Sequence record: EU719189.1
DNA from: Clostridioides phage phiCD27
Length of the DNA stretch: 50,930 nt
Strand: one strand, 5' to 3'
In this document: positions 22,914-49,611 of the stretch, piece by piece
Layout: each line of letters begins with the position of its first letter
How positions within the stretch are numbered: position 1 is the stretch's first letter
Translations under genes and position numbers: made by a program
Notes under the pieces: model-generated
Told to the model about the DNA's origin: nothing
The model's input: the letters and a program-made list of their open reading frames with translations, nothing else
The model's database searches: none

Positions 22914-24647
22914 ATGCAGACTGAATGGAATTTTAATTATGCTAATTATGTACAAAATGTTTCATTGCCACCTGGGCGATATAAATTAGAATGTTGGGGT
23001 GCTTGTGGTGGTGCTGTCGATACAAGCGATTGGACTGATTGTGCAAAAGGTGGTTATTCAAAAGGTGAGATTGTATTTAAAAAAAGAACTAATCTACAAA
23101 TTTGTGTCGGTCAATCTGGTTATGAGAAAGTTTCTGAAGGTTCAAGCCTTACTAGAAGTGGTTTTAACGGTGCAGGCGCTGCTGGCAAAGTTACTACTGG
23201 TAGCTTTGCTTATTCTAAATACGGTGGTGGAGCAACTGATATAAGACTTTATCATCCTAGTGCAACTTGGGGTAACACTGAAAGTTTGCTTTCACGCATA
23301 CTTGTTGCAGGCGGTGGAGGAGGTATGAAAAATAATTTTGCTTCTGCTCGTTCTATTGGTCATGGTGGTGGTTATGTAGGTGTTAATGGAGTTGGTCGTG
23401 ACAGAGATTTTTGTGGCGGTGGTTCTCAATACCAAGGTGGAACAAGTTACGACACAGAAGAATACCATGGTTCATTAGGAAAAGGAGGTTATGGTAACAT
23501 AGGAATAGGTGGTGGAGGGGGTTGGTACGGTGGTGCTGGTTCTTATTCTAATGAATGTGGAGGTGGTGGAAGTGGTTACGCACTAAATAAAGATAGTTAT
23601 AAGGCACCCGGATATATACCAACACCTGAATATTATCTTGAAAATATAGTCATGACTACTGGAGGTAATACTACTAAAGCAGATGGTTATGCTAAAATAA
23701 CATTACTACAAGCATTACCATTTTTAACAGTATCTTCTTATAATTCCATTACAGCTACATTTAAAGCTGACCACACAGACCCTACATTGCTTACAAAAAT
23801 AGAATATTTTATAGATGATGTGTTAAAAGAAACTATAACAACCGATTTAACTCTTGAAAAAACAATTAACTATACATTAGAAGATAATGCACTACACACA
23901 CTTAAGATAGTTGTTACAGACAGTAATAATGCTACAGCAGAAAAAGTGTTAAGTCTAAGTAAGAATATAATGCCACTGCCCGAAAATGTAAATTTGCAAG
24001 ATATATCTTCTAAACTAATTGAAGTTAACGCAGGATTTAAAACTGGTAAAACAAGTATTATAAATACTTTAGCATTAAAGAATATAGAAGCAAGTTTAAA
24101 TAATACACTTGTTGAGTTGTCAGAGAAAATAAAAACAGGTTTTGATAGTTCAGATGCTAGTGTACAGGATTTGATGAATCAGTTAACACAAGCTAATAAT
24201 ACCATAACACAGTTAAATTCTCAATTTAAAGTAGCAGGTGGTACTTCTGTTGCACAAAGAAGCGACGGAACTAAAATTGCTTATGAGTATAAAAGGTCTA
24301 CAACTTCTAAATTTGGTGGATGGCTCAAAATTAATGGTTTAGCTTTTAAACCTAATATTTTTGTAGCTGACTGCGAATATTATGACAGCGATTATAGAGT
24401 TGACTATAAATTTTTTACATTTGCTTGTTGTGGTTTTACTACAAGTGGTAAACAAGATTTTGTTGCTGTAGCAATTTATAGTCGCTCAAGTGGTAGCGAT
24501 AAATATACTGGTGATGGTTTTATTTATAACAATAATGAAGGGGATGTATGGTTTAATGCTAATGGCGTTCAAGTTCCTGCTTATTTACCAGGTGGTAGTG
24601 AAAGTTTTACTTATGCTTGGAGAGCTGTTAAATTTATGAATACTTAA
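22914..24647 (+). CDS. glycine-rich tail fibre protein
   Basis: 577 aa. Central 200 aa is highly Gly-rich (GGGGG, GYGN, GGxG repeats), typical of C. difficile myophage fibre proteins. Confidence 0.6.
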   Translation: MQTEWNFNYANYVQNVSLPPGRYKLECWGACGGAVDTSDWTDCAKGGYSKGEIVFKKRTNLQICVGQSGYEKVSEGSSLTRSGFNGAGAAGKVTTGSFAYSKYGGGATDIRLYHPSATWGNTESLLSRILVAGGGGGMKNNFASARSIGHGGGYVGVNGVGRDRDFCGGGSQYQGGTSYDTEEYHGSLGKGGYGNIGIGGGGGWYGGAGSYSNECGGGGSGYALNKDSYKAPGYIPTPEYYLENIVMTTGGNTTKADGYAKITLLQALPFLTVSSYNSITATFKADHTDPTLLTKIEYFIDDVLKETITTDLTLEKTINYTLEDNALHTLKIVVTDSNNATAEKVLSLSKNIMPLPENVNLQDISSKLIEVNAGFKTGKTSIINTLALKNIEASLNNTLVELSEKIKTGFDSSDASVQDLMNQLTQANNTITQLNSQFKVAGGTSVAQRSDGTKIAYEYKRSTTSKFGGWLKINGLAFKPNIFVADCEYYDSDYRVDYKFFTFACCGFTTSGKQDFVAVAIYSRSSGSDKYTGDGFIYNNNEGDVWFNANGVQVPAYLPGGSESFTYAWRAVKFMNT

Positions 24648-24660
24648 TAGAGGTGATAAA

Positions 24661-24957
24661 GTGGATAGAGCAAATAGAATTATATGTGACCAAACAGGTA
24701 AAATACTCTTGCAAACAGGAGAAGCAACAGGGGATGTATTACCACACAATAAAATAACTGAATTACATTATATTGATATTCCATATGGAAGTATAGATTA
24801 TATTAAAAATAGAATTGTAGGTATAAATATAGAAACAAAACAGCCAATTTTGGAAGAAATACCAGTATATGTAAGTGAAGCAGAAAAAGAAAAACAAGAG
24901 TTAGAAAATCAATTACTTTTATTGACAAATCAAGAAATCGGAGGAGGAATTTTATAA
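24661..24957 (+). CDS. hypothetical tail protein
   Basis: 98 aa, RBS AGAGGTGA. Confidence 0.4.
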   Translation: MDRANRIICDQTGKILLQTGEATGDVLPHNKITELHYIDIPYGSIDYIKNRIVGINIETKQPILEEIPVYVSEAEKEKQELENQLLLLTNQEIGGGIL

Positions 24958-25139
24958 TGAATATAAATAATGTTGTGGTAAGAATATTAGCAGAAAGAAT
25001 ATTAAATGGAGGGTTAAACCCTTTGAAAAATAGAGAGTTTCAACTTGATGATGTAACTAACACAGAATACAGAAAAGCAGTAGAGGATTATATTATAAAA
25101 AATAGTGGAGTAGTAGAAGGAATAGAACCAACAGCGTAG
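24957..25139 (+). CDS. hypothetical small tail protein
   Basis: 60 aa, overlapping start. Followed by a hairpin plus T8. Confidence 0.35.
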   Translation: MNINNVVVRILAERILNGGLNPLKNREFQLDDVTNTEYRKAVEDYIIKNSGVVEGIEPTA

Positions 25140-25154
25140 TAGGTTCTTTTTTTT
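25125..25154 (+). terminator. putative intrinsic terminator
   Basis: GAACC ... GGTTC stem followed by TTTTTTTT. Confidence 0.45.
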
Positions 25155-25173
25155 ATTGAAAGAAGGTGACTAA

Positions 25174-26406
25174 ATGACTTTTAAAGAGTTAGTTAATAAA
25201 GTTAGAAATCTTGTATTAGAAGCAAAGAATGTAACTATAGAAGATACAGAGAATAATTTTACAAGTGATAATGTAGAAGGAGCATTAAAAGAGGTTTTTC
25301 AAAGTGGAGTTAATGCTAAAAATAATGTAGTAACAGCATTAAACTCCAAAGGTGCAGAGGTTACTACAAGCGATACATGGGAAGAAATAAAGAATAAAAT
25401 TGATATAAAAGAGGGGCGATTAGATTTAAGAGAAACAACACTTTCAAATAACTATCCGTATTTAGTTACAAATGGAGCTATAAAATATATTGAAAGATGT
25501 AGTGGGAACTTCAAAACTTTTGAATATGAAGAACCATATTTTTATGTAATTAAAGAAACTCATCTAATTAAAATTAATGCTATTGATGAAACAGTAGTTT
25601 TTGACATTACTTTAGCTAATGCTAACTTCTCATGTATCTGTGTTACACAAGAGTATTTATTTATATCTGACAATACTAAATTATATAAAATAAATAAGAC
25701 AACAGGAATTGAAGTGCAGTCAATAGAAGGTGCTTATTATAAGTTATGTACTTATGGGGAATTTATTTATGGAGTATATGGAGATGAGACTTCTTCTACA
25801 CTTCATAAAATTAGAATATCTGATATGTATATAATGTTAACTAAAAATTTAGTTTCTAATGGTATTTACAATTTTAAAGGAGGTAAGTTTGTTTGCAATA
25901 AGAATGCTATTTATGCTACAACAGAACACTCAAATTCAAGTAGTATTACAACATGTCATTTATCTAAAATAAATTTTGATTTTGCCATTGCTAAAGATTT
26001 TAGAATTGGAGGATATTTGCATATGAAAAACATTAAGTTTTTAAATGATTTTGTTATTGCATCTGATGCAGAAAGAGGTATAGAAATTGATAGCAACAAA
26101 AAAAGTGCTTTAGTAAAATATGACGCAAATTTAAATTTAATTGTGTATTCAGACGATAGCAAATATGACAATTTTGATATATATAATGGATATATATATG
26201 CTATATATTCGCTTTCTAGTAGTCCTTTTGTAAAAATAAGTTTAAATACTCTTAAACGTATCGACAGCTACCGAAAACTTACTGAAACATACCCAAGTGC
26301 TGGTATGTTTGTAATAAATGATATAGTTTTCTTTATTAGTAGTGGAATTTTTAGAAATATATTGTCAAAAAAGGTTTATTCGGATGAGAAAGGAGAATCA
26401 TTATGA
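25174..26406 (+). CDS. putative distal tail fibre / receptor-binding protein
   Basis: 410 aa, last large gene of the tail block, RBS GAAGGTGA. Confidence 0.4.
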   Translation: MTFKELVNKVRNLVLEAKNVTIEDTENNFTSDNVEGALKEVFQSGVNAKNNVVTALNSKGAEVTTSDTWEEIKNKIDIKEGRLDLRETTLSNNYPYLVTNGAIKYIERCSGNFKTFEYEEPYFYVIKETHLIKINAIDETVVFDITLANANFSCICVTQEYLFISDNTKLYKINKTTGIEVQSIEGAYYKLCTYGEFIYGVYGDETSSTLHKIRISDMYIMLTKNLVSNGIYNFKGGKFVCNKNAIYATTEHSNSSSITTCHLSKINFDFAIAKDFRIGGYLHMKNIKFLNDFVIASDAERGIEIDSNKKSALVKYDANLNLIVYSDDSKYDNFDIYNGYIYAIYSLSSSPFVKISLNTLKRIDSYRKLTETYPSAGMFVINDIVFFISSGIFRNILSKKVYSDEKGESL

Positions 26407-26702
26407 TTTATTTAGGAAATTTAATGGATACAGAAGAACAAAATATAAAATATGTTGGTATGATACACTATGAACCAAATTTGTTATCGGAGGAAAACTT
26501 AAAACAAGGTATTTTGATAGAGGAATTACCAACACCAAAATACACAGAAAATAAAGAAACAAAGTTATTTATAAATATAGATACTAAAGAGGTTTTCTAT
26601 AGATATACAGATATTAAAAGTAGCATAGAAGACAAAGTAAATTCTACAGAACAAACAATAGCAGATTTAACATTTCAATTAATGTCAAATGGGGTGATAT
26701 AA
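26403..26702 (+). CDS. hypothetical protein
   Basis: 99 aa, overlapping start. Confidence 0.4.
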   Translation: MIYLGNLMDTEEQNIKYVGMIHYEPNLLSEENLKQGILIEELPTPKYTENKETKLFINIDTKEVFYRYTDIKSSIEDKVNSTEQTIADLTFQLMSNGVI

Positions 26703-26840
26703 ATGAATTGGTACAAGATAATAACAGATTTCTATAATAATGGTAATTGGACTAAAGAGCAAGTTAAAACGGCAGTAGAAAAGAATAAGATAACAGCAAG
26801 TGAATATAAAGAAATTGTAGGAGAGGACTATATAGCATAG
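26703..26840 (+). CDS. XkdX-family small phage protein
   Basis: 45-aa ORF below the ORF-track cutoff: MNWYKIITDFYNNGNWTKEQVKTAVEKNKITASEYKEIVGEDYIA. It matches the XkdX family pattern (W-Y, TKEQV, KITAEEYxEITGE) and position. Confidence 0.6.
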   Translation: MNWYKIITDFYNNGNWTKEQVKTAVEKNKITASEYKEIVGEDYIA

Positions 26841-26848
26841 TCTTTTTT
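26821..26848 (+). terminator. putative intrinsic terminator before lysis cassette
   Basis: GACTA-tatagca-TAGTC hairpin followed by TTTTTT. Confidence 0.45.
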
Positions 26849-26871
26849 AATTCAAAAATTAGGAGGTTTTC

Positions 26872-27102
26872 ATGAATGAAGAACTTTTCGAAGCAGATTT
26901 AAAAAGACATGAAACAAGAATAAATAAACATGGAGAAGAAATAGACGAATTAAAAATAGCAAATATAGAGTCTAAAGCAGAGTTAAAAGCATTGTGTGAG
27001 AATCTAAACTCACTTACAAGTATGCTCAAATGGCTAATTGGTACAATGATTACAACACTTGTAGGGTTCTTTATATTTGCAGTTCAAAGAGGAATATTTT
27101 AA
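26872..27102 (+). CDS. XhlA-like hemolysin/lysis accessory protein
   Basis: 76 aa, coiled-coil N-terminus and single C-terminal TM helix (WLIGTMITTLVGFFIFAV). RBS AGGAGG. Confidence 0.65.
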   Translation: MNEELFEADLKRHETRINKHGEEIDELKIANIESKAELKALCENLNSLTSMLKWLIGTMITTLVGFFIFAVQRGIF

Positions 27103-27121
27103 TTAATTAGGAGGATAAGAG

Positions 27122-27379
27122 ATGGATAATTTAATAAGTTTTATACCAGAGCAGTTGCTAATTTTAGTAGCTGCTCTCTCTATTATAGGTAAGGGCTGTA
27201 AGAAGTATAAGCAACTAGATAACAAATATATTCCAGTAGTGTTATTAATACTTGGTATAGGATTTTCTATTTGGATGTTAGGACTAAGTCCTGTTGCAGT
27301 CTTACAAGGCGTGATTTGTTGGGGTATATCAATAGGTATAAACCAAACTTACAAACAGTTGAAGGAGGAAAATAAATAA
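27122..27379 (+). CDS. holin
   Basis: 85 aa with two TM helices and a charged C-terminus. RBS AGGAGGA. Immediately upstream of, and overlapping, the endolysin. Confidence 0.75.
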   Translation: MDNLISFIPEQLLILVAALSIIGKGCKKYKQLDNKYIPVVLLILGIGFSIWMLGLSPVAVLQGVICWGISIGINQTYKQLKEENK

Positions 27380-28191
27380 TGAAAATATGTATAACAGTAG
27401 GACACAGTATTTTAAAAAGTGGAGCATGTACTTCTGCTGATGGAGTAGTTAACGAGTATCAATACAACAAATCTCTTGCACCAGTATTAGCAGATACATT
27501 TAGAAAAGAAGGGCATAAGGTAGATGTAATAATATGCCCAGAAAAGCAGTTTAAAACTAAGAATGAAGAAAAGTCTTATAAAATACCTAGAGTTAATAGT
27601 GGAGGATATGATTTACTTATAGAGTTACATTTAAATGCAAGTAACGGTCAAGGTAAAGGTTCAGAAGTCCTATATTATAGTAATAAAGGCTTAGAGTATG
27701 CAACTAGAATATGTGATAAACTAGGTACAGTATTTAAAAATAGAGGTGCTAAATTAGATAAAAGATTATATATCTTAAATAGTTCAAAGCCTACAGCAGT
27801 ATTAATTGAAAGTTTCTTCTGTGATAATAAAGAAGATTATGATAAAGCTAAGAAACTAGGTCATGAAGGTATTGCTAAGTTAATTGTAGAAGGTGTATTA
27901 AATAAAAATATAAATAATGAGGGAGTTAAACAGATGTACAAACATACAATTGTTTATGATGGAGAAGTTGACAAAATCTCTGCAACTGTAGTTGGTTGGG
28001 GTTATAATGATGGGAAAATACTGATATGTGATATAAAAGATTACGTGCCAGGTCAGACGCAAAATCTTTATGTTGTAGGAGGTGGCGCATGTGAAAAGAT
28101 AAGTTCTATTACTAAAGAAAAATTTATTATGATAAAAGGTAATGATAGATTTGATACACTTTATAAAGCATTGGATTTTATTAATAGATAG
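27379..28191 (+). CDS. endolysin, N-acetylmuramoyl-L-alanine amidase (Amidase_3; CD27L-like)
   Basis: 270 aa. N-terminal MKICITVGHS...ELHLNAS amidase_3 catalytic motifs and a C-terminal cell-wall-binding domain. From memory this closely resembles the C. difficile phage phiCD27 endolysin CD27L. Confidence 0.9.
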   Translation: MKICITVGHSILKSGACTSADGVVNEYQYNKSLAPVLADTFRKEGHKVDVIICPEKQFKTKNEEKSYKIPRVNSGGYDLLIELHLNASNGQGKGSEVLYYSNKGLEYATRICDKLGTVFKNRGAKLDKRLYILNSSKPTAVLIESFFCDNKEDYDKAKKLGHEGIAKLIVEGVLNKNINNEGVKQMYKHTIVYDGEVDKISATVVGWGYNDGKILICDIKDYVPGQTQNLYVVGGGACEKISSITKEKFIMIKGNDRFDTLYKALDFINR

Positions 28192-28286
28192 ATAAAAGTT
28201 ATCAACTAGAAGTGGTTGTTTGTTGTGATAACTCTATTATTGTAATATAATGTAAATATATTATTGTGATAATGGAGGATTTATGT

Positions 28287-28634
28287 ATGGATGCATTGGT
28301 TTATGAGAGATTTGTAAGAGCAGCTTTTAGTATTAAACTTAATAACTTGATTAATAGAAGCGAAGATTTAGGTGGATTGGCTGAAGCTGATATCTTTAGA
28401 GCAGCAAATAATTTACATGAATTAAATGAGATAAAAATAGGTACTGGGTATGCTATTGCAATATTTAATAATGAGATATTAGAGTCTTGTAATGTTTCTG
28501 ATAATGATAGCAATAGAATGATTGAACTATTTGATAGAAGTTTAATTGCAACTTCTAGGGAGGAAATATTGGATATTATAAGAGAATATGAAACTTATAG
28601 AGGACGATATCTTACTTTTAATTGGAAGAGATAG
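28287..28634 (+). CDS. hypothetical protein (accessory region)
   Basis: Start reassigned to ATG 28287 (MDALVYERF...), which has RBS GGAGGA 7 nt upstream. The ORF-track start at 28266 has no RBS. Confidence 0.45.
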   Translation: MDALVYERFVRAAFSIKLNNLINRSEDLGGLAEADIFRAANNLHELNEIKIGTGYAIAIFNNEILESCNVSDNDSNRMIELFDRSLIATSREEILDIIREYETYRGRYLTFNWKR

Positions 28635-28799
28635 AATGTTTAAGTTAGGAAGTAGTAATTATAGTTAGTTATTACTTTCTTTCACATATTTTTATTATTT
28701 CAATAAGATTATTTCCAAATAATAATTTATTCAATGATAATAAGTAGAAAATAAAATTTTGAATCAATATAAAATTTAATGAAATGAGGTAGTAAAATC

Positions 28800-29318
28800 A
28801 TGGATAAAAAAATAGACATAGCGAAGTTTATAGTAAATAGAATTGATTACTATATTGAAAAATCAGATAATAAAGCTAGTTTTTTACTATTATTAAATAG
28901 TGCAATTATAGGTTTTTTATTTTCAGGGAAGGAAAAAATAATGAATCACTTAAGTATAAGTAATATCAGATGTTTAGAGATGCTATTTTACATTGTTATA
29001 TTATGTATATTTGTTATTTCAATTTATTTTTCGATTATGGTTTTAAAGCCAAGGAATTCTAAAATAGAAAATGAATATAAATCTATTTTTTATTATAAAG
29101 AGATAGCATCTTTAAATAATGAACAGTACAAAGAAGCATTTGAAAATGCATTTAAAGACGAAGAAAACTTGATTAATGATGCACTTGTTCAAATAAAAGA
29201 ATTATCTTTAATCTGTGATAAGAAAATGTATAATGTAAAAAAGTCAGTAGAAGCTTTTATTTTAGGTGGTATTATATTGTTTATATATATACTTGTAGTA
29301 GTTTTTAATGCTATTTAG
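28800..29318 (+). CDS. small 3-TM membrane protein (SLATT/DUF4231-like candidate effector)
   Basis: 172 aa. N-terminal amphipathic helix (IDIAKFIVNRIDYYIEKSDNKASF), then TM1 (LLLLNSAIIGFLFS), TM2 (MLFYIVILCIFVISIYFSIMVL), a helical stretch and a C-terminal TM (AFILGGIILFIYILVVVFNAI). RBS GAGGTAG. Confidence 0.45.
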   Translation: MDKKIDIAKFIVNRIDYYIEKSDNKASFLLLLNSAIIGFLFSGKEKIMNHLSISNIRCLEMLFYIVILCIFVISIYFSIMVLKPRNSKIENEYKSIFYYKEIASLNNEQYKEAFENAFKDEENLINDALVQIKELSLICDKKMYNVKKSVEAFILGGIILFIYILVVVFNAI

Positions 29319-29381
29319 AAAATGTTTTATTTGGTTAGTATTCCTCTATGAAGATAGAATCAAATCATAGAAGAATACTAT

Positions 29382-30968
29382 TTACATATTTGTAGATTCT
29401 TGTAATTGATTTTCATTTAATTTTTTAAATGCTAGTTTTAAAGTTTCTTTAAAATCAGGTACTGTGTTTTCATTAAAATCTTCAAGTTCATCCTCTCCTA
29501 TCCATGCAAGTTCATTATGTTTTGATGTGGGTTCAAATTTAGAAATATCATAATCATTTATTATTTCTGCGAGAGTTATAATGCCTTTGTGTAAACCATC
29601 ACTTTTTTTAACTTGATAAATTGCTAGAGGTATAGGTTGGCAATCATCTTTTCTTGTGCAATCAGTAATAGGTTCAATGTTTATATTAAAATCTTTTTCA
29701 TATTCATCTTTAATAGTATTTATAATTGAAGTTTCTAGACTTGCCTTAGCACAACCAAATTCCCATTTACTCGCATTATTATTTCTATTATCACTTCTTT
29801 TCGCAATTAATATTTTTGAAGTTGATTTATTATAACAAACCGCAACACAGTGTAATTCCATTAAATCTACTTTTATATAGTCTTTATCTATTGTATTTTT
29901 ATCATAACTGGGGTTTGTTTTAGAAATTACGTCACCTATTTTTTCAATCTTATCACTAAGGTTTCTGTCTATAAGTATTTTATCCAAAGCCTTGTCTACA
30001 GAATTAAACATAAAAGAATCAATTAGTAATTTACTTTCTCCTTTTTTATTAAAAAAATATTCTCGAACCAATTCATTTTCTTCTATTTCATCAAAAGAAA
30101 AACTATCATCAAATTCTATATCATTATTTTTTCCTTTATTATGATACCAAATGATAGGGTATAGTTTATCTTTCCAGATACCCTTTAATTTTTTATATGT
30201 AATTATATGTAATTTAGATAAAATATCAGTTTTTCTTGATAATATATAAGCTAGTTCAAAACTAAGAACAAGTCTTTCTGGGCATGTTTGCTTTGATATT
30301 CTGAAACCAGCATCAATATCATTTCCTAAGAACTCAAATATTTTATAATTATTGGATAAATCGTACATAGCAGAAATATTTTCATATTGTTCATTATTTT
30401 CTAAAGCATTAAAATTAGGATTTCTTGATACTATAGCAATCCAGGCCGCTCCTTTTAATGAAATAATATTTTGAAGTTTCATTAAGTATTTTTCAGATTC
30501 AGAAAATCCTTCTAGTGTAGAGAATATATTACCACTTTTTATATCTTTAGCAGTGCTTGTTAAAATATCAAAGATTATATCTATGTATTTATAAATTTCA
30601 TCATAATTTTTTAGTACGATAATGAAAATTACCTCATCACCAAGAACTCTCCAAAGTTGTGCTTTAAGGTTTTCATAAACTCTATATTGTAACTTACGAA
30701 TTATATGTGATAATACCTTAGCCCATCCGCTATAATTTATATTTTTATATAATGATGAATTAGCTATATCAAAAGAAAAGAACAAAATCACTTCTGGATG
30801 ATTAGGTTCTTTTTCTTTTTCATAAATATCAGTATTAATATTTTCTTGAAGTTTTTCCTTATACTTTTTAAGATTAAAAGCGTTTTCGTTTTTAGCTGAA
30901 TTATGAACATTATTTACATTTTGAGTTTTATATTCTTTATCATCTACCATTGTAAATATCCTAACCAT
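29382..30968 (-). CDS. Palm-domain (GGDEF / class III cyclase-like, degenerate) - Nudix-like fusion protein
   Basis: 528 aa. Residues about 55-250 show VILFFSFDIAN...KNINYSGWAKVLSHIIRKL...WRVLGDEVIFII...GNDIDAGFRISK, matching the DIDHFKxIND...GDxVL...RxGGDEFxxLL...GxxVNxAARLE pattern of the GGDEF/class III cyclase palm fold. DIA replaces DID and LGDEV replaces GGDEF. Residues about 400-520 (HCVAVCYNKSTSKILIAKRS...KWEFGCAKASLETSIINTIKDEYEKDFNI...ELAWIGEDELEDF) have Nudix-fold topology with a variant Nudix box. Confidence 0.5.
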   Translation of the reverse strand: MVRIFTMVDDKEYKTQNVNNVHNSAKNENAFNLKKYKEKLQENINTDIYEKEKEPNHPEVILFFSFDIANSSLYKNINYSGWAKVLSHIIRKLQYRVYENLKAQLWRVLGDEVIFIIVLKNYDEIYKYIDIIFDILTSTAKDIKSGNIFSTLEGFSESEKYLMKLQNIISLKGAAWIAIVSRNPNFNALENNEQYENISAMYDLSNNYKIFEFLGNDIDAGFRISKQTCPERLVLSFELAYILSRKTDILSKLHIITYKKLKGIWKDKLYPIIWYHNKGKNNDIEFDDSFSFDEIEENELVREYFFNKKGESKLLIDSFMFNSVDKALDKILIDRNLSDKIEKIGDVISKTNPSYDKNTIDKDYIKVDLMELHCVAVCYNKSTSKILIAKRSDNRNNNASKWEFGCAKASLETSIINTIKDEYEKDFNINIEPITDCTRKDDCQPIPLAIYQVKKSDGLHKGIITLAEIINDYDISKFEPTSKHNELAWIGEDELEDFNENTVPDFKETLKLAFKKLNENQLQESTNM

Positions 30969-31465
30969 TTCCCTCTATTAGATGCTGCATAAGAGGAAAC
31001 ATTAAAGTATTCTGCAATTTTTGAAGTGTCGACCTTATTACCTACTGTGTTTTCATCCATAATTCTTTTATATTCATGTTTAGGCATCAACAAGGCTGCT
31101 GCAAATTCATTGGATTGATACTCCTTATTGGTATTGCCACTTCTAAAATACTGATTTCCATCTTGACTATTCCATAGTTCATCATCAATGCCATAACCCA
31201 TGTGTAAAAATAAATGTCCAAGTTCATGAGCAATGGTAAAATTCTTTCTGGTATCTGGTTGATAAGGAGATACCACTATTTCAAATGAATCATCAACTTT
31301 TCTAATAAATCCATCAGAGTATCCACTTAAAGAACTATCTTCTATTACCTTGCCTCCTAAAGCATCAACAACTTGATTTATATTTACTATTGGAATTTGG
31401 ATTTTGTATGTTTGGATAATATCTTGGGTTATATCATTAATTAGCTCTCTGATTTTGAAATCCAT
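30944..31465 (-). CDS. ImmA/IrrE-family (COG2856) zinc metallopeptidase
   Basis: 173 aa. HELGHLFLH zinc-binding motif plus downstream EFAAALLMP motif. RBS AAGGATGTGA. Its 3' end overlaps the start of the 528-aa gene by 25 nt, consistent with one operon. Confidence 0.75.
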   Translation of the reverse strand: MDFKIRELINDITQDIIQTYKIQIPIVNINQVVDALGGKVIEDSSLSGYSDGFIRKVDDSFEIVVSPYQPDTRKNFTIAHELGHLFLHMGYGIDDELWNSQDGNQYFRSGNTNKEYQSNEFAAALLMPKHEYKRIMDENTVGNKVDTSKIAEYFNVSSYAASNRGKWLGYLQW

Positions 31466-32166
31466 AAAATCACATCCTTATATAATATTTTATTTAAATA
31501 ATTATTTATTATAATATTCATTATATCAAAAACTATTTTTTTTGGTACATTTAATATTAATTATTTTCATTAACCTTTTGTATTATACAATATAATTATA
31601 CCATATAAAAACTGTTTTTTGTCGAATGTATGTTTGAAAAAATAAAAATTAGTAAATTATCTTAAAAATAATTAGATATACTTTGGAAGCAATAAGAATA
31701 TTAACAATAAGATAAATCGTTGAAATACCAACATGTGTTAAATAATAACAATAAACAAATAATAAAATTTTAGATTTCAGAATATGAAAGAACCAAAAAA
31801 CGATTAACTAGTAATCTTAATTAAATTCATTTAGTTGATGTTAAAGTATGAAAACTATAGTAGAAGTTGTAATAATAAAACGAACGAAAATTATCATACT
31901 AAAACATAATACATGCTATAATTGTATTAGATAAATGCTTGAATATATACCAAAAGTACTCTTTTTATAAGAGTGCTTATTTTTTTGAAATTCATCAACA
32001 TATAAACTATCAAGAATATTACTCAACACACCTTAAAATTGATTTAAATTCTTTTTCATACACAAAGTTATATGATATAATAAAAAAGTAAATATGTAAC
32101 CCCAACACATCTTTACTAAGTCAAACATTATTATATAGAGCATTCTTCATTATGGAGAGTGCTTTT

Positions 32167-32355
32167 TCATTTCTTTGAATAATCATGTTGATTATTTATA
32201 ATATTTTCATTTAATTTATCTTTATCTATCAAATTTAATGCACAATTAATACAAATGTTAGTTTTCATATGACTTTTCTTATGAAAAGTAATATACTTAT
32301 TATCATCTTTATTTATTCCTTTATTACAGTAATCACATAATATAGTCTTAGTCAT
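32167..32355 (-). CDS. small zinc-ribbon protein
   Basis: 62 aa with CxxC (C7, C10) and CxxC (C36, C39) pairs. Weak RBS. Confidence 0.35.
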   Translation of the reverse strand: MTKTILCDYCNKGINKDDNKYITFHKKSHMKTNICINCALNLIDKDKLNENIINNQHDYSKK

Positions 32356-32494
32356 ATTTTTATTCCTTTCATTTTATATTTTCCATAATTAAGTTTAACA
32401 TATTTAGTATATACCTATGTATATATATTTAAAACAATGTTTTTTATTGCAATATAGAATATATTGTATAAATAAAAAAATGGAGAATAGATAT

Positions 32495-32521
32495 TTGATA
32501 ATTGTAAAATTATGTTATAAT
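32495..32521 (+). promoter_or_regulatory. sigma-A-like promoter for the toxin-like small ORF
   Basis: TTGATA at 32495-32500, 15-nt spacer, TATAAT at 32516-32521. Confidence 0.45.
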
Positions 32522-32611
32522 TAAAATGCAAGAATAATCTTGTGGAACTACAATCTAAGAGTGGAGCTTCATTTTCTACATTCCATCCCTTAAAAGGAAG
32601 GAGGTGGAGAA

Positions 32612-32755
32612 ATGAGCGAATTTTTACTAGGAGTGTTAGCTAGTTTAACAGCTAGCTTTATTACATATATTATTTCCAGAAAAGTAAAAAGCCACTCTGG
32701 CAGGAGTGACTTTGAGCTTGATGTAAAAATCAAGTTTAATAAAAAACGACATTAA
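32612..32755 (+). CDS. type I toxin-like small membrane peptide
   Basis: 47 aa: MSEFLLGVLASLTASFITYIISRKVKSHSGRSDFELDVKIKFNKKRH. One N-terminal TM helix and a charged K/R-rich tail. Very strong RBS GGAAGGAGGTGG 7 nt upstream. It resembles the FLLGVLAxLTAS-type toxins of C. difficile prophage and CRISPR-associated type I TA modules. Confidence 0.6.
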   Translation: MSEFLLGVLASLTASFITYIISRKVKSHSGRSDFELDVKIKFNKKRH

Positions 32756-32767
32756 TATTTAGTTAAT

Positions 32768-32815
32768 GAAACTTCACTCTAGGCTAATAGATTGTAGTTT
32801 CTTTTTTTGTTTTTG
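32768..32815 (+). terminator. putative terminator of toxin mRNA
   Basis: GAAACT ... AGTTTC stem with an unusually large loop, followed by TTTTTTTGTTTTTG. Confidence 0.4.
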
Positions 32816-33308
32816 ATACGAATTTACATCTTTATTATATCGCATTTTGAGAAAAAATAAAACTATGAATATTAGAAATATATTTTATTTTATCTCTAAG
32901 TATATATATTATTAGCCACCTAAAAAACTTTCATAAAAACAAAAAGAACAATATCTTTTTGGCAACTGGCTGGCATAATTTATAAGAATTTTATAAATCT
33001 TAGTCCCTATAGCTTTGCGTCACTAATTTTCTCTAGTTTTGCCGATTTAGTTTTGTTATACAACTAAAATAATACAATAGAATTAGTTAATGTTCAACAA
33101 GGTTGTTTGAAAATTAAATAAATTTATAGGTATGAATAGTATTTATTCCTAAAAAGGAACAGAGTATTTAAAGGTCAAGGTAAGTTAGAATAGTATTGTG
33201 AACTAACATTTGATTATGCGAAATTCTATGAAACAGGAACCCTGTGACTTTAGTCATGGGAGGTTCAGTGTATATCGCGTATTTCAATTGTTATAAGTAT
33301 TTTATTTA

Positions 33309-33356
33309 TTTGGACTAACTAATAATAGCCAAGTGGATACTATATGTTAGTCCAAA
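33309..33356. other. candidate attP (48-bp imperfect dyad next to serine integrase gene)
   Basis: Perfect 11-bp inverted repeat TTTGGACTAAC (33309-33319) / GTTAGTCCAAA (33346-33356) separated by 26 nt with partial internal symmetry. It starts 4 nt beyond the 3' end of the large serine recombinase gene. Confidence 0.45.
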
Positions 33357-33359
33357 TAA

Positions 33360-34718
33360 TTATATAAAATTAATAGTGATGTTTTTGTTATTATCTATTT
33401 CTATATAATCTATTATAGATAACCAAAAACGTCTGCGTTCAACCCTGCTTAAATCACTATACATCTCATTAATATCAATATCTAAGAATTTTTTTATATG
33501 TGATGTATCAATAATTTGACTCTCCTGTTCTTCAGTTATATTATCCAGTTGAGATTGTAATTTTTCATAATCTTTTCTATAAGTCTCTTTATCAATCAAA
33601 TCCTCTAAATATAAATCTTTGATTTTATCTAATTTTTTCATGATTTTCTTCTTTTCATCTTTTTTGTTAGATTTCTTATTTCGTCTGATTTTTTCATTTT
33701 GTGCTTCTAATTTCACCATATGTTTATGTAATTGTGGTTTTAAGTTAGTCAAAAGGTAGTTTTCTATATGTTTTTCATTATGAGTTACATTGTGTACACA
33801 GTTTTTATTTAGATAGAATGTAGAACATCTATAAGATAAATAAAGTTTTTCTCCAACATTACTAGAATTACCCTTTAATGTATAACCACACTCCTTACAT
33901 TTTAAAAGACCAGAAAAAATATGATAATGTATGTTTTTATTAGGAGTAGTTTTTTTATTTTTTTCTAATATTCTTTGGATTTGTTTAAATTGTTTTTTTG
34001 ATATAATAGGTTCACAATAATCTTCAACATAAAATCCTCGTTTATTATAGATTCCTATATAAAGTTCATTTCTTAGTATATTCTTTATTTTATTATAACT
34101 GTATAATTCGCCATGAAGATTATTAATTGTTTCTATTAAAGTCCTAACAGAACCTGATTTCTCGTATTCGTCAAATATAGCTTTAACTATATATTTTTTT
34201 TCTTTATCAATAACTAGATGCTTATTTTCTATTTTGTAACCTATGGGAATTGTACCACTTATAACTTCTTTACGTCTCAATTTATCCTGAAAAACAAATT
34301 TTATTCTTTCAGATGTTTGAGCTGCTTCATTTTCTGCTACAGATAGCATAATGTTTATATGTAATCTACCAGCAGCAGTGCTAGAATCGTAGTTTTCTAA
34401 AATGGTTTTCCAATCACACTTATGTTTTTCCAAGGTTTCCATTATTTTATAATAGTTTTTAACGCCACGACTTAGTCTATCAATTTTAGTCATTAAAACT
34501 AGGTCTACTTTATCTTTTTCCACATCTCTTAATAATCGTTGTAAGTTAGGTCTTTTTAAATTAGTTGCAGAGCAACCTTCATCAATGTATTTACCAACTA
34601 TGTTAAAATCATTCTCTTTAGAGTACTGTTCTAAAGCCTCTATTTGTGTCCTTATGCTATCTCCATTTAAAGCTTGTTCTTCTGTACTAACACGTATATA
34701 AAGTGCTACTCTTAACAT
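33360..34718 (-). CDS. large serine recombinase (phage integrase)
   Basis: 452 aa. N-terminal resolvase catalytic domain (YIRVSTEEQ with nucleophilic Ser), recombinase domain, a Cys-rich zinc-ribbon region (CKECG ... C) and a C-terminal coiled coil. Confidence 0.9.
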   Translation of the reverse strand: MLRVALYIRVSTEEQALNGDSIRTQIEALEQYSKENDFNIVGKYIDEGCSATNLKRPNLQRLLRDVEKDKVDLVLMTKIDRLSRGVKNYYKIMETLEKHKCDWKTILENYDSSTAAGRLHINIMLSVAENEAAQTSERIKFVFQDKLRRKEVISGTIPIGYKIENKHLVIDKEKKYIVKAIFDEYEKSGSVRTLIETINNLHGELYSYNKIKNILRNELYIGIYNKRGFYVEDYCEPIISKKQFKQIQRILEKNKKTTPNKNIHYHIFSGLLKCKECGYTLKGNSSNVGEKLYLSYRCSTFYLNKNCVHNVTHNEKHIENYLLTNLKPQLHKHMVKLEAQNEKIRRNKKSNKKDEKKKIMKKLDKIKDLYLEDLIDKETYRKDYEKLQSQLDNITEEQESQIIDTSHIKKFLDIDINEMYSDLSRVERRRFWLSIIDYIEIDNNKNITINFI

Positions 34719-34782
34719 TTTACATTCCCCCTTATTGTATATTTAAGAGGAGCTGAACGGCTCTTAAATATACTATGAATTG

Positions 34783-35256
34783 TTACAAAAAATTTGCATT
34801 CATAATACTAAATCTTGGCTCAAAAAATATCACATAATTATCTAGTGTAGCTGAAAAACCATATTTACTTTTATAACATTCTAAAGCTTCATTTAGAAAC
34901 TTTTCAGTTACATCAAGGTATTCTGCCATTTCGGTTATAGTCTTACAGCCAGCATTAAAACTATCTATTATACCTTTAAGACCAATTAACTTGTTGTAAG
35001 CCATCAATCTAGCTTTATATTCTTGTTTGCTATTTTCAACTTTATTTAGGTCTAATATATTTCCATATGAAGTATAATGATGTCCTAGTTCTTCTGCTAA
35101 CACACAAGCTTTTTCACTTATATTATTAAGTGTATTTTTATTTAAAGCTATTCTATTATTTTTATATAATCCATGAGAATTTGAAATTAAAGGAACTTCT
35201 CTAACAATAATATTATTATCATCTGCTTCAGAGAGTAACTTTTCATAACTATTCAT
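34783..35256 (-). CDS. ImmA-like (COG2856) metallopeptidase, anti-repressor protease
   Basis: 157 aa. HEXXH motif in AEELGHHYTSYG. Located between the CI-like repressor and integrase as in the ICEBs1 immR-immA-int operon. Confidence 0.7.
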   Translation of the reverse strand: MNSYEKLLSEADDNNIIVREVPLISNSHGLYKNNRIALNKNTLNNISEKACVLAEELGHHYTSYGNILDLNKVENSKQEYKARLMAYNKLIGLKGIIDSFNAGCKTITEMAEYLDVTEKFLNEALECYKSKYGFSATLDNYVIFFEPRFSIMNANFL

Positions 35257-35273
35257 AAGTTCACCTACCTATT

Positions 35274-35729
35274 TTACCAATTATCCATATCATCTAAATC
35301 TTGATATATTTTTTCAATTTCTCCTTCTTCATGTAAATGTTCATTGTGTGCCGCTATTGTGTCTATGTGATTTTTATTTACATATTTACCTATTTGAGTA
35401 AGTTCATCTACTCTTTTTATTGCTTCATTTTGTCCAATATCGTTTAAGGCATTAAAGCTTGATAAAAGCTTATTTTCTTTAATTTTAATTTGTTTGCAGT
35501 CTTCGTTCCACCCCATTATAAAAGCAGGAGATTCATCTAATGCATGTGCTAAAATTTCTAGCTTATCAAGAGGAATATTTTTTATAGCTCCCGTTTCATA
35601 TCTCTGTAAAGTGGACTTACTTAGTCCAGTCTTGTTAGCTAAATCTTGATAAGACATATTAAGTTCTAATCGTTTATTTTTTATTCTATTTGTAATCTCC
35701 AACATTTTTAAATCATTTTCAGTATTCAA
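35274..35729 (-). CDS. CI/ImmR-like XRE-family HTH repressor
   Basis: HTH_XRE motif LNMSYQDLANKTGLSKSTLQRYETG, C-terminal dimerisation region. Probable start is TTG 35729 (RBS GAGGTGAT) or ATG 35705. The ORF-track N-terminal extension to 35870 reads through the promoter region. Confidence 0.8.
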   Translation of the reverse strand: MNTENDLKMLEITNRIKNKRLELNMSYQDLANKTGLSKSTLQRYETGAIKNIPLDKLEILAHALDESPAFIMGWNEDCKQIKIKENKLLSSFNALNDIGQNEAIKRVDELTQIGKYVNKNHIDTIAAHNEHLHEEGEIEKIYQDLDDMDNW

Positions 35730-48447: not shown

Positions 48448-49611
48448 ATGGAGGAAATAATTATGGAAATTAATTTTAATGGAGAGCGTTTAAAGAAAGC
48501 TCGTATATATAGAGGAATGACAGTAGCTGAATTAGCTGAGAGAATTGACTGTCAAAGACAGACTGTTTCGATGTATGAGAATAATAAATCGAAACCAAAT
48601 GATAATAATGTAGTGAAACGAATAGCAAAAGAGTTAGGTTTCCCAGTTAAATTCTTTTTAGAAACAGGAAATAATATTGCAATAGGTTCAACATATTTCA
48701 GAGCATTATTGACTACAAATAAAAAATATAGAGCAGAGCAAATTCAAAAAATGGAATTTCTAGCAGAAATATATTTCTTCTTACAAGATTATATTGAATT
48801 CCCAACATTAAATTTACCAGATTGTTCTGGGAAAACACCAGAAGAAGCTGCTTTACTTTTAAGAGAAACTTGGGGATTAGGATTAAAACCTATTGATAAT
48901 ATCATATATGAAGTAGAACAACACGGAATACTTGTAACAAGTTTCTCGACTTCTACAGATGATATAGATGCATTCAGTCAGATGGTAGATATTTCGGGAG
49001 AGACATTTTATCTGATTGGATATTCTAGTAATAAGACTTCTGCCTCTAGAATTCATTTTGATATAGCTCATGAATTAGGGCATATATGCTTGCATGAGTG
49101 GAGCGAGGATGTAGAAGCTTTAGAAAAACAAGAATTTAAAGACAGAGAATCAGAAGCTAATAGATTTGCATCTGCATTCTTATTACCAGAAGAGACTTTT
49201 AAAATTGATGCTAAGAGAACTCCTTTACGTATTCCAAACTATACAGAATTGAAACGTAAATGGAAAGTTTCTATTCAAGCAATGATTCGTCGTTCATATT
49301 CTTTAGGAATCATCAGCATGGATGAATATCATTCTATGATTCGTACTTTACAACGTAGGGGACTAAGAAAATCAGAACCATTAGATGATGAATTATTAAC
49401 TTCTCTACCAGCATTGTTAAAAACAGCAGTTTTGATGTTATTAAATGAGAAGGTATTTACTCCAAAAGAGTTTATGGATGAACTTTCATTTTCCTATAAC
49501 TTTAGTCTAGAGCCAGAAGAAGTAGAATATCTATTAAGTTTACCTAAAAATACTCTAACTTCTGCTAAAGTTATACCATTTCCTGATTTACAACTTAAAA
49601 AAGATGTTTAA
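48448..49611 (+). CDS. XRE-HTH / ImmA-IrrE (COG2856) peptidase fusion protein
   Basis: 387 aa. N-terminal HTH_XRE (LKKARIYRGMTVAELAERIDCQRQTVSMYENNKSKP), central HEXXH peptidase motif (AHELGHICLHEW ... EANRFASAFLLPEE), and a C-terminal helical extension. Confidence 0.75.
   Translation: MEEIIMEINFNGERLKKARIYRGMTVAELAERIDCQRQTVSMYENNKSKPNDNNVVKRIAKELGFPVKFFLETGNNIAIGSTYFRALLTTNKKYRAEQIQKMEFLAEIYFFLQDYIEFPTLNLPDCSGKTPEEAALLLRETWGLGLKPIDNIIYEVEQHGILVTSFSTSTDDIDAFSQMVDISGETFYLIGYSSNKTSASRIHFDIAHELGHICLHEWSEDVEALEKQEFKDRESEANRFASAFLLPEETFKIDAKRTPLRIPNYTELKRKWKVSIQAMIRRSYSLGIISMDEYHSMIRTLQRRGLRKSEPLDDELLTSLPALLKTAVLMLLNEKVFTPKEFMDELSFSYNFSLEPEEVEYLLSLPKNTLTSAKVIPFPDLQLKKDV

Follow-up and report, generated by a model that had tools for sequence, protein, structure and literature searches.

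CapH and CapP are documented regulators of two kinds of immune operon, those of cyclic oligonucleotide-based antiphage signaling (CBASS) and those of the pyrimidine cyclase system for antiphage resistance (Pycsar) (PMC13373217). Once activated by single-stranded DNA, CapP cleaves the helix-turn-helix (HTH) repressor CapH, inducing adjacent immune operons that include Pycsar (PMC13373217). Here, we describe a cassette from the Clostridioides phage phiCD27 that places a CapP-like peptidase gene beside the genes for a predicted nucleotide cyclase and a Pycsar effector. All positions refer to the window, which is the whole 50,930-nucleotide stretch of DNA that was analyzed (EU719189.1). The cassette comprises three genes:

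30944-31465, minus strand: stand-alone M78 (ImmA/IrrE/CapP-like) zinc metallopeptidase gene, 173 amino acids
29382-30968, minus strand: cyclase-Nudix fusion gene, 528 amino acids from the first ATG in the list of open reading frames (ORFs)
28800-29318, plus strand: PycTM-type Pycsar effector gene with three transmembrane (TM) segments, 172 amino acids, convergent with the cyclase gene

The cassette is probably a prophage-borne, Pycsar-like abortive-infection system that signals through a cyclic nucleotide monophosphate (cNMP). This reading is based on the intact active site of the cyclase, the PycTM effector, the conservation of the three genes as a trio, the CapP-like peptidase, and the location of the genes in a variable cargo slot. 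We are much less confident about the roles of the peptidase and the Nudix domain. A first-pass annotation of the window had offered two readings, a phage-carried nucleotide-second-messenger conflict system or an anti-defense enzyme. The former agrees with what we find: a cyclase fold with an intact site, an adjacent Pycsar effector, a recurrent trio, and defense or mobile genes near some of the homologous loci.

Fold and active site of the cyclase domain

The 528-amino-acid protein matches no Pfam family. We built an AlphaFold2 model with an alignment of 46 homologs, and this model is confident, with a mean predicted local distance difference test (pLDDT) score of 84.9 and a predicted TM-score of 0.70. 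When it is used as a Foldseek query, class III cyclases rank first (CyaC, E 5.4e-9, target TM-score 0.76-0.81), and no GGDEF domain is among the matches listed. Matches in BFVD were to single domains only. The protein does not combine a GGDEF-type palm as its closest fold with a GG[DE]EF hairpin. Thus, the N-terminus does have the nucleotide-cyclase palm that had been proposed for it, and the palm is of the class III type.

We examined conservation in 61 diverse relatives, whose identity to the phage protein is only 24-47%. Active-site residues were mapped from fold, motif order, and secondary structure, rather than from superposition, against what we take to be the class III consensus (F-x-D-[IL]-x-G-[FS]-T; K-x-x-G-D; G-x-x-V-N-x-A-x-R). 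The domain and the codons of its predicted catalytic residues are as follows, all on the minus strand:

30114-30806: class III cyclase homology (palm) domain, residues ~55-285
30768-30770: D67, kept in 60/61 relatives
30648-30650: R107, a position with K or R in 61/61
30633-30641: G110-D111-E112, each kept in 61/61
30312-30314: D219, kept in 61/61
30300-30302: R223, kept in 61/61

In the model and alignment, FFSFD67 ends strand beta1, W-[KR]107-x-x-G110-D111-E112 lies at the beta2-beta3 hairpin, and G215-x-D-I-D219-x-G-F-R223 starts the helix that follows. G221 and F222 are also invariant (61/61 each), and the complete active-site set is retained in 60 of the 61 relatives. The palm had earlier been called degenerate because it was compared with GGDEF motifs. 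That description does not hold, since D67 (FSFD), D111 (GD), and R223 are the residues expected of a class III cyclase and are kept in 60/61. The putative metal-binding D (FDI) and E (GDE), which the first-pass annotation had proposed to check, are conserved, with D67 at 60/61 and E112 at 61/61. Fold and conservation together identify a predicted class III cyclase with an intact active site, which would be expected to be active.

The family departs from class III cyclases at two positions. An invariant Asp (D219) replaces the transition-state Asn, and an invariant Glu follows the second metal-binding Asp, giving a GGDEF-like “GDE.” Where purine cyclases have the residue that specifies the base, every member has K or R, which does not predict the substrate. 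When a profile of the cyclase domain alone was searched against sequences, its sole match was a weak one to the GGDEF protein DosC (E 0.012). The invariant Glu of GDE accounts for both this match and the earlier impression of a GGDEF domain.

The DosC match could also point to a different kind of role. The locus might serve a housekeeping second messenger of the GGDEF-like or cAMP type, or control lysogeny through an ImmA-type anti-repressor protease, and have no part in conflict between phages. A cyclic di-GMP (c-di-GMP)-I riboswitch lies 1.5 kb upstream on the same strand, and the phage also encodes an XRE-M78 fusion regulator, both of which would suit such a role. However, the structure search puts class III cyclases, not GGDEF domains, first. 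The genes occupy a variable cargo slot and are wanting in most sister phages, their flanks vary among genomes, with recombinases or defense genes near some loci, and their partner is a Pycsar effector. We therefore give a housekeeping or lysogeny role almost no credence.

A helical linker or middle region follows the palm, as judged from secondary structure and pLDDT:

29874-30113, minus strand: linker, residues 286-365

The linker closes with a low-confidence loop (residues 354-361), which may be a candidate cleavage or hinge site. Relatives that lack the Nudix domain (~310-330 amino acids) end within or past this region.

A PycTM effector and a conserved gene trio

The gene convergent with the cyclase gene encodes a PycTM effector. 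It matches Pfam PF18967 at 47.3 bits (gathering score 27.2; 3e-12) and the PADLOC PycTM model at 2.9e-31, and has hydrophobic segments at residues ~27-43, 64-82, and 154-172. RefSeq labels it “DUF5706 domain-containing protein.” The first-pass annotation had missed this gene, which settles the reading of the locus. A homology search with the phage PycTM returned only near-identical C. difficile copies, as did tblastn against phage records.

The cyclase-Nudix protein belongs to a large family. A word-indexed search found 457 homologs. An exhaustive profile search found 1,932 cluster representatives (clustered at 50% identity) at E<=0.001, the weakest of which may be plain Nudix proteins, with 1,020 at E<=1e-10 and 412 at E<=1e-30; most are 450-530 amino acids long. 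Hundreds of full-length homologs at 25-56% identity exclude a chance ORF. Most homologs are chromosomal in bacteria.

We examined synteny at 47 loci from species-level genomes (GTDB), using hidden Markov models made from the window proteins; 45 loci could be evaluated on each side. These loci are mainly from Lachnospiraceae and Clostridium, and also from Romboutsia, Sarcina, Megasphaera, Catonella, Leptotrichia, and a Melainabacteria metagenome-assembled genome. The M78 peptidase gene is directly upstream of the cyclase gene, overlapping or abutting it, at all 45 loci with upstream sequence. PycTM adjoins the cyclase gene downstream at 39 of 45, on the same strand at 38 and convergent at one (Sarcina ventriculi L053, confirmed with Pfam). 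The co-directional trio, with overlapping or abutting genes, also occurs in metagenome contigs (L001-L006) and in three divergent IMG/VR viral contigs (L076, L077, and L081). Clustering of the ORFs from 1.5 kb upstream to 2.5 kb downstream at 53 loci revealed no further conserved partner beyond the trio.

The flanks of the trio vary by genome, which is the pattern of a small mobile cassette. Among the 150 nearest neighbors, raw counts are highest for serine recombinases (Recombinase, 7; Zn_ribbon_recom, 6; Resolvase, 5), BrxC/BrxD (4), and XRE HTH (4), with Integrase, SSB, and Amidase_3 at 2 each. Single loci lie beside SIR2_2, BrnT, or PIN genes, or beside type I restriction-modification (R-M) genes, while others lie between two-component and transporter genes. 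The link to mobile elements and defense islands that the first-pass annotation had asked about is thus seen near part of the homologous loci, and the trio recurs in dozens of genomes and several viral contigs. Some copies of the cassette are broken (L046, L057, L041, and the truncated L078/L079). Pseudogenized copies are usual for defense genes.

In a widespread gut lineage (L001-L004, 7444-7815), whose PycTM protein is found on many contigs, PycTM has only 123 amino acids and no third TM segment; this effector is either shortened or decaying.

Evidence that weighs against a Pycsar-like system

Several observations weigh against the Pycsar-like reading. First, PycTM is absent from six of the 45 loci (L013, L017, L022, L024, L049, and L050), none of which has any TM neighbor. 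Second, PycTM is convergent with the cyclase gene across a 63-bp gap, both in the window and in every C. difficile phage copy, and the two are not co-operonic. Third, the phage PycTM shares only ~25% identity with the effectors at loci where the cyclase is closest to that of the phage (~48% identical), compared with 32-38% at L081 and L052, where the cyclase is only ~35% identical. On these identities, the phage PycTM would be of different descent from the cyclase, and the effector looks swapped, which fits its inverted orientation. Fourth, none of the 61 family members matches Pfam Guanylate_cyc (PF00211) or any PADLOC PycC model. A PF00211 annotation is likewise on none of the 120 matches listed from a search of 5.8 billion proteins with the cyclase-only profile. 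Finally, the Asp in place of Asn and the GGDEF-like Glu mean that the chemistry could differ from simple cNMP synthesis.

Distant relatives add to these points. The cyclase-only profile finds Nudix-less proteins of ~310-330 amino acids and two-domain proteins of 430-450 amino acids in Leptospira, Brachyspira, Fibrobacterota, Chitinivibrio, and Kapabacteria. Four such arrangements are as follows:

Leptospira noguchii (L084): peptidase and 313-amino-acid cyclase
Brachyspira (L085): peptidase and 430-amino-acid protein
Metagenome lineage (L088/L089, 1-4930): two tandem M78 genes and a 309-amino-acid Nudix-less cyclase, directly after the methylase and specificity genes of a type I R-M system
Chitinivibrio-like (L087, 4001-5844): 444-amino-acid two-domain relative with no upstream peptidase; a Nuc_deoxyrib_tr gene (PF05014, 5.5e-27) overlaps its 3' end

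No TM neighbor is present at L084, L085, L087, or L088. The arrangement at L088/L089 is defense-island-like, and the Nuc_deoxyrib_tr protein of L087 may be an alternative effector or partner. The annotators of phage phiC2 noted similarity to ORF1/ORF2 of Leptospira phage LE1, to which tblastn gives a weak match (27% identity, E 1e-8). PycTM is evidently not required for the peptidase-cyclase pair to persist. From the distant lineages and the LE1 match, we regard the pair as the putative old core, with PycTM as the usual output in the Firmicutes clade.

These observations could instead be read as those of a two-gene unit, either toxin-antitoxin-like or a self-contained abortive-infection module. 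In such a unit, the cyclase would be toxic, through consumption of nucleoside triphosphates (NTPs) or production of a toxic nucleotide, the peptidase would control it, and PycTM would be an independent neighbor. The pair at 45/45 loci, the six loci without PycTM, the Leptospira, Brachyspira, and R-M-adjacent loci without PycTM or a TM neighbor, the convergent phage PycTM of apparently different descent, and the lineage with a Nuc_deoxyrib_tr protein instead all fit this explanation. Nevertheless, a same-strand, abutting PycTM at 38 of 45 loci from many genera is hard to explain without functional coupling, while the swapping and loss of effectors are usual in signaling defense systems. We know of no toxin that uses the class III cyclase fold as its toxic activity. 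On balance, a two-gene unit of this kind seems unlikely, and a Pycsar-like system with an exchangeable effector remains our preferred reading.

A Nudix domain without a catalytic Nudix box

The C-terminal domain has a Nudix fold:

29385-29873, minus strand: Nudix-fold domain, residues 366-528, with a degenerate Nudix box (WEFGCAKASLETSIINTIKDEYEKDFNI) at residues 402-429

A full-length profile finds only Nudix matches among Protein Data Bank sequences, including MutT (E 0.0015), and no known cyclase. Among the relatives, 19/61 reach Pfam NUDIX (best 8.4e-9) and 56/61 reach the PADLOC candidate PDC-S07. Together with the model and Foldseek, these matches bear out the earlier proposal of a Nudix fold with a variant box; neither domain of the protein was placed in an unrelated fold. 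The box in the window reads A-x5-T-x7-D-E-Y-E-K-D-F-N-I, compared with the catalytic GX5EX7REUXEEXGU. All five catalytic residues are kept in none of the 61 members, and the most that any member keeps is three. As the catalytic box is lost throughout, the domain is probably non-catalytic and a ligand-binding sensor.

Two other annotations of the protein were rejected. AGS-C, the sensor domain of Pycsar-2, was first considered for the C-terminal domain, but it is Ig-like according to the literature, and 0/61 relatives match Pfam AGS_C. The PF18570 annotation carried by some homologs is a spurious, sub-threshold match to a nucleoporin model.

The loss of the box bears on the second of the first-pass readings, in which the module acts against host defenses. 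Here, the Nudix domain, the cyclase domain, or both would remove host immune nucleotides, by destruction or sequestration, or would mimic them, and the peptidase would cleave host defense proteins or repressors. The module is phage-borne and lies in a cargo slot, and Leptospira phage LE1 and other viral contigs carry homologs. Viruses reportedly use Nudix enzymes against immunity based on NAD or ADP-ribose (PMC9503650). An anti-defense role is nonetheless difficult to reconcile with a catalytic Nudix box in 0/61 members and a cyclase active site under strong constraint. Moreover, the homologs are mostly chromosomal in bacteria and the module is tied to a cell-killing membrane effector of the Pycsar type. 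We consider such a role very unlikely.

A CapP-like peptidase without an HTH repressor

The 173-amino-acid peptidase matches Pfam PF06114 (Peptidase_M78/COG2856, 2.2e-18), PADLOC capP (3.6e-25), and phrog_87 (“metallo-protease”). Among solved structures, CapP (7t5t, E 0.0011) is the nearest relative, with IrrE next. The HExxH motif is H80-E81-L-G-H84 (31214-31228), and the third ligand is likely to lie in E115/E120-FAAALLMP (~31082-31123). H80, E81, H84, E115, and E120 are at least 95% conserved among 51 distinct orthologs, and the peptidase should thus be catalytically competent. This is the stand-alone COG2856 peptidase (HELGHLFLH) that had been recognized in the first-pass annotation.

No HTH ORF is present in the ORF list for the 700 bp upstream of the peptidase gene (31466-32166), as had been observed before, and no HTH partner family is conserved in the 53 clustered loci. 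The analogy to CapP that had been drawn therefore applies to the peptidase itself, which is CapP-like by both the capP model and 7t5t, and does not extend to a CapH repressor, which is absent at every locus. Because it has no HTH partner, is shorter than CapP, and is encoded inside the operon by a gene coupled to that of the cyclase, the peptidase would act as a post-translational regulator, on a protein and not on transcription. We infer that the cyclase-Nudix protein is its most economical candidate substrate.

Two other regulators were observed. An XRE-family HTH protein of ~180 amino acids (HTH_19/HTH_3) is encoded downstream of PycTM at 6/53 loci (L034, L036, L037, L041, L042, and L046); this is too rare for a core partner and could be a lineage-specific regulator. 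The phage also encodes a second M78 protein (48448-49611, plus strand, 387 amino acids), in which an XRE-type HTH (residues 12-66) is joined to Peptidase_M78 (residues 157-282). Presumably, this fusion is the ImmR/ImmA-like lysogeny regulator of the phage; it is distinct from the cassette peptidase.

The missing HTH partner would also be accounted for if the protease destroyed the cyclase. This is one form of a guard or decoy arrangement, in which a constitutively made nucleotide keeps PycTM shut, and the effector is freed when phage sponges or phosphodiesterases remove that nucleotide, or when the peptidase destroys the cyclase. Panoptes, a palm-domain cyclase with a TM effector, provides a precedent (PMC12657218). 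No data contradict such an arrangement, but there is no positive evidence for it, and it leaves the loci without PycTM unexplained. In Pycsar, moreover, characterized PycTM effectors are reportedly activated, not inhibited, by cNMP (Tal et al. 2021, Cell). We thus hold a guard or decoy mechanism to be highly improbable.

The phage cargo slot

In the phage, the cassette lies between the lysis genes and the recombinase gene:

26872-27102, plus strand: XhlA, a lysis gene
27122-27379, plus strand: holin, a lysis gene
27379-28191, plus strand: Amidase_3 endolysin, a lysis gene
28191-31850: variable cargo (“moron”) module of 3.66 kb, between endolysin and recombinase
28266-28634, plus strand: 122-amino-acid ORF (phrog_5384) inside the cargo module
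31466-31850, minus strand: AT-rich upstream region of the operon, 385 bp, part of the cargo
33360-34718, minus strand: large serine recombinase

The two overlapping minus-strand genes were correctly placed between the lysis cassette and the integrase in the first-pass annotation, and in a position where temperate phages carry cargo. Homology to the sister phage phiMMP02 (blastn against the window) stops at 28190 and restarts at 31851. Other sister phages have unrelated genes in this position (Agr, AbiF nearby, and unnamed ORFs), and most of them are without the cassette.

The cassette region is 99.9-100% identical to that of the C. difficile temperate phages CDKM9, phiCDHM19, phiC2, and phiCD508. 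The surrounding region of the window (24500-35500) is a mosaic that no single matching record covers completely; the best is CDKM9, which covers 70% at 95.8%. The cassette itself is 100% identical to the CDKM9 copy despite the diverged surroundings. Evidently, it has moved between phages whose backbones are otherwise diverged.

The 122-amino-acid ORF was considered as a fourth component. It has no match in Pfam or PADLOC, and its homologs are restricted to the C. difficile phage copies, with none at other loci. It was therefore rejected as a component and is treated as a passenger.

Two IMG/VR C. difficile prophage contigs (L078, 3054-3605; L079, 1346-1897) have an intact peptidase and a cyclase cut to 183 amino acids (96% identity across residues 1-179), and PycTM is gone. 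These are decayed cassette variants circulating in C. difficile prophages. phiC2 has an AbiF-type abortive-infection gene between holin and endolysin (L083, 3718-4581) in addition to the cassette. This gene, which is absent from the window, shows that this phage family has a second cargo slot.

Gene starts and expression

The cyclase probably starts at M7 of the listed ORF:

30950-30948, minus strand: ATG of M7, with AGGA ~8 nt upstream, giving 522 amino acids

The minus-strand junction between the peptidase and cyclase genes reads TTAGGATATTTACAATGGTAGATG, and the junction sequence CAATGGTAG has AGGA upstream. The peptidase gene stops at 30946-30944, and its last sense codon overlaps the M7 start codon. 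The conserved start of the homologs is “MV,” which corresponds to M7, and the database cluster P0001 is 522 amino acids long and 100% identical to the cyclase-Nudix protein. On the conserved start, the AGGA, the overlap, and the length of P0001, the cyclase gene probably encodes 522 amino acids and is translationally coupled to the peptidase gene.

The operon presumably has its own promoter in 31466-31850. This region contains sigma-70-like hexamers at 31529-31501 and 31609-31582 and an AAGGA ribosome-binding site before the peptidase ATG; promoter-like sites there are no commoner than in shuffled sequences. Repeats in the region were rejected as AT-rich noise, and a match to Rfam snoR25 inside a gene was rejected as chance.

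A hairpin lies between the convergent PycTM and cyclase genes:

29332-29384: hairpin with an AT-rich 15-bp stem and one mismatch, in the 63-bp gap, overlapping the cyclase stop codon

RNA folding gives a dG of -16.6 kcal/mol (z -3.2 against shuffles). A scan for consensus terminators did not call this hairpin, which is AT-rich and has one mismatch; it is a possible bidirectional terminator. The same scan found no plus-strand terminator between endolysin and PycTM, so late lysis transcription may also extend into PycTM.

A c-di-GMP-I riboswitch aptamer (RF01051, 32958-33053, minus strand) is present in the backbone common to phiMMP02 (69.1 bits, gathering score 35, E 1.6e-12). The aptamer is flanked by the serine recombinase gene and a 62-amino-acid zinc-ribbon-like ORF (32167-32355, phrog_2569), and it precedes the peptidase-cyclase operon by 1.5 kb on the same strand.

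Proposed mechanism and significance

In the Pycsar-like system that we favor, the class III cyclase domain would make a cyclic mononucleotide from an NTP. As expected from membership in the PycTM family, this cNMP would switch on the three-TM effector, causing membrane damage, and the cell would be halted before a superinfecting phage could finish its cycle. The fused Nudix domain, having lost its hydrolytic residues, would most likely gate the cyclase, either by sensing a nucleotide or other ligand or by autoinhibition. The M78 peptidase would be an integral post-translational regulator, most likely triggered by an infection or DNA-damage cue, as is CapP. In the weakest step of this scheme, it might cleave the cyclase-Nudix protein, or another protein, to turn signaling on. 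In a lysogen, the system would shield the host, and hence the prophage, from other phages.

A more specific proposal can be made only tentatively, and we think it somewhat doubtful. The peptidase could be a post-translational, infection-sensing trigger that cleaves the Nudix-capped cyclase, or a phage protein, to license cNMP synthesis. The peptidase-cyclase core, from Leptospira phages to gut Clostridia, might then represent an unrecognized family of protease-gated signaling defense systems, with PycTM as one of several outputs and the inactive Nudix domain as a sensor of a nucleotide-derived cue.

If the Pycsar-like reading is correct, current defense tools miss a large family, with at least 412 clusters at E<=1e-30 and ~1,000 at E<=1e-10, concentrated in Clostridia of the human and animal gut. 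Four isolate phages (phiC2, CDKM9, phiCDHM19, and phiCD508) and many C. difficile prophages would hold a ready-made abortive-infection module. The cassette thus bears on phage therapy and on prophage-mediated exclusion in C. difficile, a major pathogen. It would also join ImmA/CapP-type proteases and cyclic-nucleotide signaling, so far apart, in one coupled operon without a repressor. The inactivated Nudix domain is a candidate sensor, and could offer a route to how Pycsar-type cyclases sense infection.

Relationship to known systems

We found no description in the literature of a Nudix-cyclase fusion, nor of the trio of M78 peptidase, cyclase-Nudix protein, and PycTM, including under PycTM with Nudix, spdB3 with Nudix, and phiC2 with Nudix. 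Experimental reports of phage resistance conferred by it were likewise not found. A survey of Pycsar-related cyclases from 2026 makes no mention of Nudix or of an M78 peptidase.

The peptidase recalls the regulatory pairs CapH and CapP (of CBASS, Pycsar, and the defense island system associated with restriction-modification, DISARM), ImmR/ImmA, and DdrO/IrrE. It shares with them the capP match, CapP and IrrE as nearest structures, the HExxH motif, and an association with a nucleotide-signaling operon. Unlike CapP, it has no adjacent HTH repressor, either in the window or at the 53 loci. At 173 amino acids, it is also shorter than CapP (291) and IrrE (301); it aligns with CapP residues 90-182, and the C-terminal ~110 residues are missing. 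Furthermore, its gene opens the operon and is translationally coupled to that of the cyclase, whereas CapH and CapP form a separate upstream regulator pair.

Housekeeping class III cyclases (CyaB, CyaC, and Cya2) are only 8-12% identical to the cyclase domain, with no match at the level of hidden Markov models. They differ from it in the Asp for Asn, in the extra helical insert that it carries at residues ~147-166, and in gene context. The Nudix domain is likewise set apart from ADP-ribose-binding NrtR sensors and MutT hydrolases; its box is kept in 0/61 members, unlike that of true hydrolases.

The Pycsar-2 subclade follows the same general plan, in which a short helical N-terminus precedes the cyclase, a putative sensor domain makes up the C-terminus, and the only effectors are of the TM type. 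Its C-terminal domain is the Ig-like AGS-C (10.1101/2023.05.21.541620), whereas that described here has a Nudix fold, and the published Pycsar-2 classification mentions no M78 peptidase.

Pycsar itself is the closest known system. In both cases, a class III-fold cyclase stands beside a three-TM PycTM effector, with the genes co-directional and abutting at most homologous loci, and both are mobile or phage-borne, with a patchy distribution and pseudogenized copies. The cassette differs in a cyclase that PF00211 and PycC models do not detect, in its Asp for Asn and GGDEF-like GDE, in the Nudix fusion and obligate M78 peptidase gene, and in the convergent effector of the phage. Among the features of Pycsar, an adjacent PycTM or PycTIR effector is present in the window; a single co-directional operon is absent there and is found at 38 of 45 loci elsewhere. 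The earlier statement that the locus is not any named system is thus fair for the trio as a whole, although the effector places the trio next to Pycsar.

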